A stretch of DNA of 64,000 bases from Acidobacteriota bacterium (GCA_965205505.1 CBDBHB010000009.1:2752001-2816000), one strand, 5' to 3'. Shown: positions 2,051 through 46,176, counted from the stretch's first letter. Translations and numbers: made by a program. The notes: generated by a model from the letters alone, not told the origin.

Positions 2051-2860
2051 ATGCTGAGAGATATGTGGAAAGCGCGTGACCTTCTGGGGGGTACTGAGCC
2101 CCGTGGCACAGATCCGATCGTGGACCGTGACCCGAACTCACCGATCGTTCGGCTACGTGGACTCGAGAAGTGGTACAAGTCGGGGTTCGGCCGCACGTAC
2201 GTGCTGCGCCGTATCAACGCAGACATCCGTCAGGGCGAGTTCGTCACCATCATGGGCCCGTCCGGGGCTGGTAAGTCGACTTTGTTGAGCATCGTCGGAA
2301 TGCTCGACGGGTCATGGGAAGGGGAGTACTACTTCCTGGACTATCCGGTTCATGACCTGAGCTCGAAAGAGCGAAATCGCCTTAATCGCGAATACATCGG
2401 CTTCGTCTTCCAGAGCTACCACCTGATCGACAGCATGACCGTCTACGAGAACCTCGACGTGCCGCTGTCGTATCGGAACGTCAAGCGTGCACAGCGCAAG
2501 AGCATGGTGGCGGACACCCTCGATCGCTTCAATATCGTCGGCAAGAAGGACCTCTATCCGAGCCAGCTATCGGGCGGTCAGCAGCAGCTGGTGGGCGTTG
2601 CTCGCGCCATCATCGGCAATCCCAAGGTACTTCTTGCCGACGAGCCGACCGGCAACCTGCACACCGCGCAGGGCAGAGAGATCATGGAGCTGTTCAAGCG
2701 CCTGTGTGAGGAGGAGGGAACGACCATCGTGCAGGTCACCCACTCCGAGATGAGCGCTGCATACAGCGACCGGATCATCAACTTGCTGGACGGCTGGGTC
2801 GTTGAAGACGATCCGTACAAAGCCGAGCACGCCGAGCCTGCCGAACCTGCCGAGTCGTAG
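2051..2860 (+). CDS. ABC transporter ATP-binding protein (LolD/MacB-like)
   Basis: Walker A GPSGAGKS, LSGGQQQ signature, LLADEPTGNL, VTH. Confidence 0.95.
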   Translation: MLRDMWKARDLLGGTEPRGTDPIVDRDPNSPIVRLRGLEKWYKSGFGRTYVLRRINADIRQGEFVTIMGPSGAGKSTLLSIVGMLDGSWEGEYYFLDYPVHDLSSKERNRLNREYIGFVFQSYHLIDSMTVYENLDVPLSYRNVKRAQRKSMVADTLDRFNIVGKKDLYPSQLSGGQQQLVGVARAIIGNPKVLLADEPTGNLHTAQGREIMELFKRLCEEEGTTIVQVTHSEMSAAYSDRIINLLDGWVVEDDPYKAEHAEPAEPAES

Positions 2861-2965
2861 GGCCGTCCGGTTCTGGAACGACGGTTTCCCAGAATCGGCA
2901 CAGCATTGGCGCTACGGCGCGGCGCACCGCGAAGCCAGCCGGGTGCGGCAGATGGGGCGGCCACT

Positions 2966-2982
2966 TTGGCACGCCGCTTGCT
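2966..2982 (+). promoter_or_regulatory. Sigma54 (-24/-12) promoter
   Basis: TTGGCACG-CCGC-TTGCT matches the YTGGCACG-N4-TTGCW consensus exactly; imperfect inverted repeat CCGGTTCTGGAAC / GTTTCCCAGAATCGG at ~2867-2898 is a candidate enhancer. Confidence 0.75.
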
Positions 2983-2992
2983 TCTTACTTCG

Positions 2993-3205
2993 GGCAAGAG
3001 CTCAGGTGACAGCGAGGACGCCAGCCCTGTTCCGATCATGGACGTAAAGGGGAGCGGCCTGGGGCTGAGGCTGGCGTGCCCGGTGTCACCCGAGCGAGTG
3101 AATACCCGGCGGTATCGAGGACGTCAGCCCTGTCCCGATATGGACGTAAAGGGGAGCGGCCTGGGGGCGATGGCTGGCGTGCCCGATACCGCCGGGTGTT
3201 TCTTT
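2993..3205 (+). ncRNA. Candidate structured small RNA with two tandem ~95-nt hairpin units
   Basis: Units 3000-3095 and 3104-3197 share a core and inner stem; outer stems differ in sequence but stay paired; sigma54 promoter upstream, GTTTCTTT tract downstream. Confidence 0.55.
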
Positions 3206-3365
3206 GCTCGGCGGAGGTCGACCGAGTACGGATTCACGAATCGGCGGTTCGATTTCCTGGATTATAGCCGACGAGAACTGTCAGTTCCGAATGGATCTGG
3301 TGGGCTGGCGTGCCAAAATGTCGCCGCCGGCCGCCCGACATGGCCAGACCCAGGAGGATTCGCTC

Positions 3366-3650
3366 GTGTGTCGAAACATCCGTCCGTTGTTCAATTTCAA
3401 GCCTGTGGCTACCGACGCCGAGGTTCGAGCCTCGGCGTTGCAATACGTACGTAAGATCAGCGGCATGCGGGCTCCGTCGCGCACCAACCACGCGGCGTTC
3501 GAGCAGGCCGTAGACGATGTTGCCGTCGTCTCGCAGCGGCTGCTGGCCAGCCTCGTTACGACGGTGGCCCCGAAGTCGCGTGAAGAAGAGCGCGCCAAGG
3601 CCCGTATGCGATGGGAGCGGCGCGCCGCACGCCTGCAAGCGAGCGGCTGA
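3366..3650 (+). CDS. DUF2277 family small protein
   Basis: GTG start after AGGAGGA; (M)CRNIRPLFNFKPVATDAEVRASALQYVRKISG. Confidence 0.85.
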   Translation: MCRNIRPLFNFKPVATDAEVRASALQYVRKISGMRAPSRTNHAAFEQAVDDVAVVSQRLLASLVTTVAPKSREEERAKARMRWERRAARLQASG

Positions 3651-3712: not shown

Positions 3713-4435
3713 ATGGCCGAGCTATCGTATTGCGTGTTCTGTGGCTCTCGGCACGGTGTTCGCCCCGCCTACGCCGCCGCCGCCGCTGCACTTGGCAAGG
3801 CGCTCGTCGGGCGCCGGCTCGGACTGGTATACGGCGGCGGTAACGTCGGTCTGATGGGCGTGATTGCCGACTCCGTGCTGGCGGCGGGAGGCCGGGTCAC
3901 CGGGGTCATCCCCCACGGGTTGGAGGTACGCGAGGTTGGCCACCCGTCTTTGAGCGAGCTTCTCGTGGTGGACTCGATGCACGAGCGCAAGCATCTGATG
4001 TCGGAGCTGTCGTCCGGGTTCGTCGCGTTGCCCGGCGGCATCGGCACCTTCGAGGAGTTGTTCGAGATCAGCGCCTGGGCGCAACTCGGGATGCACCGCA
4101 AGCCCGTAGCTCTCTTGAACGTCGCTGGCTACTACGACCGGCTCTTGGCGATGCTCGACCACGCGGTCGGCGAGGGCTTCGTCGAGTCTGAGCGGCGAGA
4201 GCAACTGATCGTCGACGACGAACCGGACCGACTACTGGACCGCATGGCCGGGTACGATGCTCCCAACGTGCCGCGATGGCTGGGCAGCAAGAAGACTGAG
4301 CTCGGTCGGCACAGGGGCGAACTTGATCCATGCGACGCTGTTGGCGACACTGCTGATATCTCCCCGCTCCAGAAGGGCCCTGCCCGCAAGCGCGATGCGT
4401 CGTCGCAGACGGGTCTGCCACGAGGTGAAGCGTGA
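3713..4435 (+). CDS. LOG family protein (TIGR00730-type phosphoribohydrolase); C-terminal ~45 aa may be read-through
   Basis: CVFCGS, LVYGGGNVGLMG, SMHERK, PGGIGTFEE. Confidence 0.92.
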   Translation: MAELSYCVFCGSRHGVRPAYAAAAAALGKALVGRRLGLVYGGGNVGLMGVIADSVLAAGGRVTGVIPHGLEVREVGHPSLSELLVVDSMHERKHLMSELSSGFVALPGGIGTFEELFEISAWAQLGMHRKPVALLNVAGYYDRLLAMLDHAVGEGFVESERREQLIVDDEPDRLLDRMAGYDAPNVPRWLGSKKTELGRHRGELDPCDAVGDTADISPLQKGPARKRDASSQTGLPRGEA

Positions 4436-46093: not shown

Positions 46094-46176
46094 GCCGGGG
46101 TGGCGGAATTGGCAGACGCGGCGGACTTAAAATCCGCTGGCCTTAGGTCATCTGGGTTCGAGTCCCAGCCCCGGCA
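46094..46176 (+). tRNA. tRNA-Leu(TAA), CCA not encoded
   Basis: GCCGGGG/CCCCGGC acceptor stem, TGGCGGAATTGGCAGACGC D-arm, GCGGA-CTTAAAA-TCCGC anticodon arm, long variable arm, GGTTCGAGTCC T-arm. Confidence 0.96.

Follow-up and report, generated by a model that had tools for sequence, protein, structure and literature searches.

A tandem hairpin RNA of Acidobacteriota, new to Rfam and probably regulatory, at the predicted 5' end of a DUF2277-LOG transcript

Results

Two hairpin modules lie between an ABC ATPase gene and a DUF2277 gene

A stretch of 64,000 nucleotides (nt) from an Acidobacteriota bacterium (GCA_965205505.1, CBDBHB010000009.1:2752001-2816000), here referred to as the window, carries two hairpin modules in tandem. 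Genes for an M49-like peptidase and an ABC ATPase (2051-2860) are located upstream of the modules. The first gene downstream codes for a DUF2277 protein (Pfam PF10041, E 2.4e-33, residues 1-78; no NCBIfam match), and is followed by a LOG-family gene and, on the same strand, by genes for FG-GAP / choice-of-anchor B proteins. From the sequence of the window, a sigma54-dependent, structured non-coding RNA had been predicted at this site (the original prediction), and all of the sequence statements made in it, on repeats, stems, fold, promoter and an upstream inverted repeat, could be located. The features of the locus are as follows:

3001-3095, plus strand: hairpin module 1, with lower stems P1/P2 and an invariant apical part (covariance model R2, fold, alignment)
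3040-3064, plus strand: core of module 1, GG-A-CGT [AAAGGGGA] GCG-G-CC, then TGGGG
3104-3198, plus strand: hairpin module 2, the basal stem of which is a perfect 14 base pairs (bp) (model R2, fold)
3142-3166, plus strand: core of module 2 (repeat search and alignment)
2967-2981, plus strand: sigma54-type promoter TGGCACGCCGCTTGC, with -24 GG and -12 GC
3198-3207, plus strand: U-rich tract GTTTCTTTGC directly 3' of module 2, which together with the basal stem resembles an intrinsic terminator
2867-2876/2889-2898, no strand assigned: inverted repeat CCGGTTCTGG/CCAGAATCGG, arms of 10 nt, 90% complementary, with 12 nt between them
3223-3263, plus strand: conserved leader block, kept in the window and in the related loci L013 and L030, with small hairpins CGAATC-NNN-GRTTCG
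3303-3314, plus strand: third occurrence of the 12-mer GGCTGGCGTGCC, short of a complete third unit
3366-3650, plus strand: DUF2277 gene, GTG start, AGGAGG at 3352-3357, first gene after the RNA
3713-4435, plus strand: LOG-family gene (TIGR00730 / PF03641; Pfam/NCBIfam)

Two exact copies of the 27-mer ATGGACGTAAAGGGGAGCGGCCTGGGG are present in the 64 kb, 102 nt apart (3038-3064 and 3140-3166). No further match with up to three mismatches was found in the whole 64 kb, and none of 100 shuffled sequences (0/100) contained any match. Each module is ~95 nt long and forms a 35-bp hairpin. The 5' arm of the inner stem reads ACGYCAGCC in both units, and the stem encloses a 42-nt core, with the arms ACGCCAGCC/GGCTGGCGT at 3018-3026/3069-3077 in module 1 and ACGTCAGCC/GGCTGGCGT at 3121-3129/3172-3180 in module 2. 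The outer stems differ in sequence between the two units, yet pairing is kept in both: GGTGACA pairs with TGTCACC in module 1, and module 2 has the perfect 14-bp stem ACCCGGCGGTATCG/CGATACCGCCGGGT (3104-3117/3184-3197). For a 220-nt plus-strand RNA beginning at 2993, two long hairpins are predicted (-131.3 kcal/mol, z = -8.1), and none of 200 shuffles folds as well. With model R2, scores of 93 bits (E 1e-17) for module 1 and 91.7 bits (E 1.9e-17) for module 2 were obtained, compared with 34.6 and 41.8 bits, respectively, on the minus strand. When the whole window was searched with filters off, the model returned these two units only, and the next best match scored 17 bits.

For the 12-mer GGCTGGCGTGCC, three matches were found where 1.0 is expected, and 7 of 100 shuffles reach three. 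The copy at 3303-3314 could pair with 3018-3027 and is partly kept in L013, an observation of weak significance. A decayed third unit at this position was rejected: 9-10 of 500 shuffles score as high, and no unit is detected there by either model.

The element matches no known RNA family

At the gathering threshold, the whole window contains a single Rfam 15 match, a tRNA at 46094-46176. Raising the E-value limit to 10 for the region 2700-3500 gave weak matches to plant and animal microRNA precursors and unrelated matches, all far below threshold, and 18 related loci gave no match at all. No Rfam family was thus matched by the window or by its relatives, in agreement with the original prediction, which had not recognised the element as a known riboswitch or small RNA (sRNA). 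In open-access literature text, we found no description of the hairpin element or of its 20-nt core, and unrelated matches only for DUF2277. We conclude that this tandem hairpin RNA is new to Rfam and previously undescribed. As the hairpin recurs in related genomes (see below), it is probably a regulatory RNA.

Related loci share the fold and an invariant apical part

Homologues were collected in one scan of species-representative genomes for the exact core pattern, in which third-codon positions were left free so that both coding and non-coding conservation could be caught. The scan returned 32 loci, 19 of which share the flanks of the window units and 13 of which share the searched pattern only. 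The 19 homologous loci come from 15 assemblies. Eighteen are titled Acidobacteria or Acidobacteriota, and the record of L020 reads 'uncultured bacterium'. L003 and L021, which are nearly identical and lie at contig ends of the same assembly, were counted once. An alignment of 22 units was built from the scan loci, the second unit of each tandem locus and both units of the window. We distinguish class A, with 14 loci in the subgroups A1 (8 loci) and A2 (6 loci), from class B, which consists of the window, L013, L017, L030 and L032. Three assemblies each carry one class A and one class B locus, a distribution reminiscent of a regulon. The number of units per locus ranges from one to two, and a single unit is present in 16 of the 19 related loci.

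The consensus structure is composed of the lower stems P1 and P2 with 24 pairs, a short variable internal loop, P3 with 6 pairs, a bulge of variable size (3-5 nt) and an interrupted apical stem of 5 bp capped by AAAGGGGA. The apical sequence GGACGTAAAGGGGAGCGGCC, which makes up the first 20 nt of the core, is identical across the 22 units with a single exception, a loop base in L013 unit 2; the searched units had been chosen by their exact core. TGGGG, the five bases that come next, is altered in three units (L013 unit 2, L014 and L032 unit 1). The invariant core positions include the would-be third-codon positions that the search pattern did not fix; third-codon identity in the neighbouring ABC gene is only 0.67, 0.64, 0.52 and 0.51 between the window and L013, L030, L017 and L032, respectively. 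The internal loops vary in sequence and length (alignment columns 33-35, 42-46 and 75-77).

The covariation of the stems that had been predicted from the two window units is found throughout the alignment, with both sides changed in 17 of 35 pairs. Sixteen of these 17 belong to P1/P2, and the five apical pairs never vary. Pairing is possible in 94.7% of 770 cells compared with 86.3% in shuffles, none of which (0/500) reached the observed value, and it falls to 39-46% when the partners are slid by 1-3 columns. Several P1 pairs occur as three or more pair types. The first P2 pair separates the two classes, with A-U in each of the 8 class B units and G-C in each of the 14 class A units. G-U cells number 105 and A-C cells 15, and the family units score 88-108 bits on the plus strand versus 26-49 bits on the minus strand; the G-U excess and the model scores establish the plus strand as that of the RNA. 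Fold, model scores and the coding test described below bear out the prediction of a non-coding, structured plus-strand RNA, and we are confident that this is a real structured RNA family.

A long, near-perfect palindrome whose copy number varies between relatives might also be a DNA-level or mobile element, that is, a palindrome of the repetitive extragenic palindromic (REP) or miniature inverted-repeat transposable element (MITE) type, a cruciform or an operator. However, the excess of G-U over A-C cells and the advantage of ~50 bits for the plus strand speak against this, and orientation and promoter distance are fixed in all loci. Dispersed REP/MITE copies, which the original prediction had itself considered, were not seen: there are two copies in the 64 kb and, in the exact-pattern scan, at most two loci per assembly, a lower bound. 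In addition, a blastn search of 2990-3215 against 72,556 plasmids gave no match, and a plasmid-borne or mobile element was rejected. A DNA-level function is, in our view, highly improbable.

Protein coding has to be considered as well, as a small protein or repeat peptide starting with MDVKGSGLG. Both 27-mers fall into one frame of a long open reading frame (ORF; 2906-3454), and a protein-database search with this ORF identified one predicted ORF of 76 amino acids (aa), P0001, which a gene caller had placed over a homologous tandem in another genome. However, P0001 conserves the nucleotide-invariant part only, and the window ORF matches nothing in Pfam. Four of the 22 units lack the ATG, the frame runs for 9-140 codons, with a stop after 9 in L007, L020, L024 and L025, and the would-be synonymous positions are equally invariant. 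Moreover, a one-base indel just before the ATG distinguishes the two window units. The MDVKGSGLG frame is therefore not conserved as a gene, as the original prediction had anticipated, and a peptide product is extremely improbable. Of the refuting conditions set out in that prediction, those examined here (an Rfam match, dispersed copies and a conserved reading frame) did not refute it. Among the loci sharing the searched pattern only (L001, L002, L008, L010, L015, L016 and other non-Acidobacteriota loci), several are unrelated coding sequences reading ...KGSGLG..., presumably the histidine-kinase ATP-binding motif, and the frame of the hairpin element imitates this protein motif by chance.

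The hairpin follows a sigma54-type promoter in class B

TGGCACGCCGCTTGC is the sole exact match to TGGCAC-N5-TTGC in the window. When one mismatch was allowed, five matches were found versus 4.1 expected; a lone match thus proves little, and it is the conservation in relatives that decides. A perfect sigma54 element is located 71-73 nt before the first core in 5/5 class B loci, and its inner N5 varies. The sigma54 promoter of the original prediction is thus kept in all five orthologous loci, which also have the upstream genes in common. Module 1 starts 20 nt past the element, and the usual spacing between a sigma54 promoter element and the transcript start places the predicted start near 2993. 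Based on these motifs, transcription at the window locus is very probably sigma54-dependent. Two units are present in three class B loci and one in two. DUF2277 and LOG genes lie downstream in the window, L013 and L030; in L017 and L032 the FG-GAP gene is directly next, and the secreted FG-GAP protein is the only product encoded there, no small ORF being present. The single unit of L030 (1950-2075) combines a 5' arm like that of unit 1 with a 3' arm like that of unit 2, and shows poor pairing in its basal stem; it looks like the product of a tandem pair collapsed by recombination.

The inverted repeat at 2867-2898 begins just past the ABC ATPase stop codon and lies 70-101 bp upstream of the -24 element. 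A matching palindrome with both arms changed (TTCCGG/CCGGAA) is found in L030, and it is not clear in L013. The repeat may serve an activator as binding site, or it may terminate transcription of the upstream gene. At 2923-2947, 20-45 bp upstream of the -24 element, there is also a perfect 6-nt inverted repeat, CGCACC-N13-GGTGCG, which is not evident in L013 or L030.

Class A loci carry an ECF-like promoter and a different set of genes

In 13 of the 14 class A loci, the hairpin begins ~8-12 nt past an AAC-N17-CGTC motif of exact spacing, an architecture that we take to be typical of extracytoplasmic function (ECF) sigma factors. As the spacing of both the sigma54 and the ECF-like promoter is fixed, the hairpin would be at the extreme 5' end of the predicted transcript everywhere. 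The proposed link to sigma54 therefore holds for class B but not for the family, 14 loci of which use the ECF-like promoter. In the window, three matches to the class A promoter with one mismatch were found versus 1.85 expected, none of them near the RNA, and such a promoter was rejected for this locus.

An alpha/beta hydrolase gene is located divergently upstream in class A. Downstream, every class A locus with enough sequence has a gene for a ~105-aa protein (e.g. L020:581-895), in which 35 positions are invariant across 10 sequences and the C-terminus is always Ala-Ala. This protein has no NCBIfam match and none in Pfam at the cut-off (the L029 copy reaches 18.7 bits with Mei5_like, cut-off 32), and no solved relative was found in the PDB (best E-value 0.23). 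The next gene codes for an AAA_28 P-loop protein (Pfam-tested in L005 and L007). In 5/6 A2 loci (L005, L012, L014, L028 and L031), a sigma54-type promoter lies just 3' of the hairpin, 73-104 nt after the core start and ahead of the small-protein gene. The small-protein gene would thus have promoters of two sigma classes, only one of which adds the hairpin.

The ECF-like promoter is itself preceded by direct repeats, which lie ~40-110 nt from the hairpin on its 5' side (e.g. in L020, L021 and L024, and in L005, L027 and L031). In A1 they are of the GCTTAC type and ~two helical turns apart, and in A2 they are paired TTGACA/GTGACA...GTTGACAC; by their arrangement, they look like response-regulator sites. 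The A1 leaders of L007, L020, L022, L024, L025, L029 and L003 contain CCCCTGG and, 8-12 nt on, a GGGGG-rich ribosome-binding site, which looks like a local hairpin that could hide this site.

Features between the modules and the DUF2277 gene

GTTTCTTT is found at 3198-3205, right behind module 2, and a simple terminator scan flags 3179-3199 plus TTCTTTGCTC as terminator-like, with a G+C-rich stem and a U-run. The number of T residues in the best 8-nt window after the last unit is 6 in the window, 6 in L013, 5 in L017, 5 in L030 and 3 in L032, and 1-4 in class A, so that a U-rich, terminator-like tail follows the last unit in 4/5 class B loci.

Such a tail behind structured repeats raises the question of a riboswitch, in which each hairpin would be a small-molecule aptamer, present in tandem in the window, that controls termination at the U-tract. 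Tandem aptamers are known in other riboswitch classes; glycine and guanidine-II tandem riboswitches have two similar units in one 5' leader, much like the two similar structured units found here before a terminator-like hairpin. The 5' leader location, the strong conservation and the nucleotide-related neighbours LOG and AAA_28 are consistent with this idea. However, in contrast to these riboswitches, the element has no conserved junction or internal loop, occurs mostly as a single unit and is associated with heterogeneous genes, which in L017 and L032 are reduced to the secreted FG-GAP protein. It is a single unbranched hairpin with variable internal loops, and invariant bases are found only in a small apical stem-loop. 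Furthermore, no competing helix was found for an expression platform, apart from the weakly significant pairing that the 12-mer at 3303-3314 could make with 3018-3027, and class A has no terminator. We consider a riboswitch very unlikely, and the tandem aptamer suggested originally is a weak candidate.

For the 5' part of the conserved leader block (GAGTACGGATTC...), pairing with GGATTCGCTCG is predicted, at the point where the DUF2277 gene has its ribosome-binding site and start codon (3352-3366). The CGAATC-NNN-GRTTCG hairpins of the block show G-U/A-U exchanges among the window, L013 and L030; with only three close sequences, both the predicted pairing and the covariation are weak.

Discussion

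We propose that the element is a modular regulatory RNA, in which the stem serves as a scaffold, the apical stem-loop binds a partner and the whole forms the 5' end of the DUF2277-LOG transcript, and we hold this reading with about as much doubt as confidence. The analysis shows the sequence, the fold, the covariation, the strand and the conservation of the promoter motifs. Transcription, its start site and its termination, as well as the existence and nature of the partner, are parts of this reading that we infer. At the window locus, an activator-dependent sigma54 promoter would drive rightward transcription from a start near 2993. The P1/P2 lower stem would then act as a scaffold that buries and protects the 5' end of the transcript, with its sequence being free as long as pairing is kept. 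In sigma54 loci, the lower stem and the U-tract might in addition form a leaky intrinsic terminator. In the window, the tandem pair would be the 5' end of the DUF2277-LOG-FG-GAP transcript, and termination at 3198-3207 would also release a two-module RNA of ~205-215 nt.

The ~20-25 apical nucleotides would be the working end, read by a conserved trans-acting partner. As the paired apical bases never covary, such a partner must read the sequence on both strands, which points to a protein, or to more extended base-pairing once the stem has been opened or the RNA processed. Since the loop AAAGGGGA is similar to a Shine-Dalgarno element, a C/U-rich RNA or the 30S subunit are candidate partners as well. 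We speculate that the partner is more likely a protein, or else a C/U-rich RNA. Whether the apical hairpin binds a partner in trans seems to us evenly balanced, and that a released RNA acts in trans is a possibility towards which we lean slightly less. Judging from the distribution of units, the single hairpin and not the tandem pair is the unit of function. The ~210-nt sRNA that had been proposed is hence not the essential form, as 16 of the 19 loci have a single unit and the A1 hairpins are leaders; it stands as one possible product at this locus. One might further speculate that the module, as a new class of riboregulator, ties sigma54 and ECF-type regulons of Acidobacteriota together by giving the transcripts of both the same frozen, Shine-Dalgarno-like stem-loop at their 5' ends, with one global partner, an RNA-binding protein or the 30S subunit, reading or being titrated by both, and that the window tandem would be a high-dose, releasable form. 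We regard this extension as rather unlikely.

Several observations weigh against a modular RNA with a trans-acting partner. The invariance of the core in the searched units is partly a product of the exact-match pattern. The second units of tandem loci were not selected in this way and are a fairer sample; the units outside the selection (L013 unit 2 and L032 unit 1) each show one or two core changes. Many of the covarying cells reflect few events, and part of them comes from the single split between classes A and B. Promoter, start site and terminator are motif-level predictions, and genes for RpoN, an enhancer-binding protein, CsrA or Hfq were not found among the 49 window ORFs scanned with Pfam. 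The loop could have paired with a C/U-rich anti-Shine-Dalgarno element of its own leader, an attractive idea for A1, given the CCCCTGG ahead of the GGGGG ribosome-binding site; we rejected this candidate, since RNAduplex predictions against the downstream 300 nt were no better than with shuffles; the complementarity between loop and downstream sequence gave z values of -1.1 to +1.8 in 18 loci. Finally, a distance of 25-130 nt separates the hairpin from the start codon in all 8 A1 loci, and there is no U-tract; in the window, the predicted pairing between the leader block and the DUF2277 ribosome-binding site argues for a continuous leader over a separate sRNA gene.

The last two points fit a purely cis-acting 5' leader, in which the hairpin would protect the 5' end or attenuate the operon, with no role in trans and no released sRNA. 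This is also in line with the start of the hairpin a few bases past the predicted transcript start in all loci. We saw no second promoter in the 8 A1 loci, which leave no room for another one, and the L029 hairpin, with ~25 nt between its end and the ATG, is certainly part of the mRNA leader. Likewise, no sigma70-type promoter was found between 2600 and 3700 in the window. However, a mere stabiliser or terminator would have no need for ~20-25 frozen apical nucleotides that are common to unlinked operons of one genome. In 5/6 A2 loci, the sigma54 promoter past the hairpin allows the downstream gene to be expressed without it, and in 4/5 class B loci a U-tract follows the last unit. Overall, we think it unlikely that the element acts in cis alone, and the modular RNA with a conserved apical end remains our preferred reading.

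A number of known systems resemble parts of this arrangement. NrsZ of Pseudomonas is an RpoN/NtrC-dependent RNA of ~226 nt. It has three similar stem-loop modules with a conserved motif in the loop, is processed into modules and, across species, contains 1-6 of them (PMC4253122). NrsZ is the closest functional analogue, in the absence of homology. The two have in common a sigma54 promoter (here an exact consensus in 5/5 class B loci, at the motif level), stem-loop modules in variable number (1-6 compared with 1-2 here) and a similar length (~226 nt compared with a predicted 205-215 nt). They differ in the loop, which reads ACAGGCAG in NrsZ and AAAGGGGA here, with no NrsZ match in the Rfam scans; in the modules, which are ~95 nt with a 35-bp stem here and thus about twice as long; and in the use of the module behind an ECF-like promoter as an mRNA leader. 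Should the module act in trans, it would be a second, independent case of the NrsZ type, in which a sigma54-driven RNA carries a variable number of equal modules.

With CsrB, RsmY and RsmZ, the element shares a repeated hairpin bearing GGA, and a decoy for an RNA-binding protein is conceivable. However, sponges of the CsrB/RsmZ type have many short hairpins with A(N)GGA loops, whereas here one or two modules with very long stems and the loop AAAGGGGA are found, and ATGGA is located at the stem border. The CsrA motif has an A two bases upstream of GGA; the invariant GGA of the element is at the start of the stem, and the loop GGGGA lacks this A. The CsrA sponge suggested in the original prediction receives no specific support; GAGGA is limited to some of the sigma54-type loci and does not characterise the family, and ATGGA is absent in 4/22 units.

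Qrr, GlmY/GlmZ and CrcZ are activator-controlled sRNAs, sometimes in paralogous copies, with an invariant functional segment, but none of them was matched in Rfam, their structures are unrelated and they belong to different phyla. Type III toxin-antitoxin systems (ToxI-like) contain RNA arrays and resemble the window in the order of promoter, tandem RNA repeats, terminator and ORF. In contrast to them, the repeats described here are ~3x longer, DUF2277 and not a ToxN/AbiQ-type nuclease is encoded downstream, and L017 and L032 are without a small ORF.

Acidobacteriota are among the most abundant soil bacteria, and to our knowledge almost no regulatory RNAs have been characterised in them. The design of the family, with two alternative-sigma promoters, a scaffold that tolerates change and a fixed working end of ~20-25 nt, is testable, and it offers a first handle on the regulation of the widespread, uncharacterised DUF2277-LOG gene pair.

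Two further observations concern genes in the neighbourhood. In L029, a Mutator-family transposase gene is located ~1 kb downstream of the hairpin, and a fragment of an ECF-like sigma-70 region 2 lies beyond the hydrolase gene (L029:1-982, 3269-3544). In the window, the ABC ATPase gene is immediately preceded by a second sigma54-type promoter with one mismatch, TGGCAAGCCTATTGCA (2033-2048), which recurs in 5/5 class B loci. The transcript start predicted from it would leave the shared ATG (MWK..., 2063) almost leaderless, which casts doubt on translation from the ATG at 2051; the latter is probably not the true start of the ABC ATPase.

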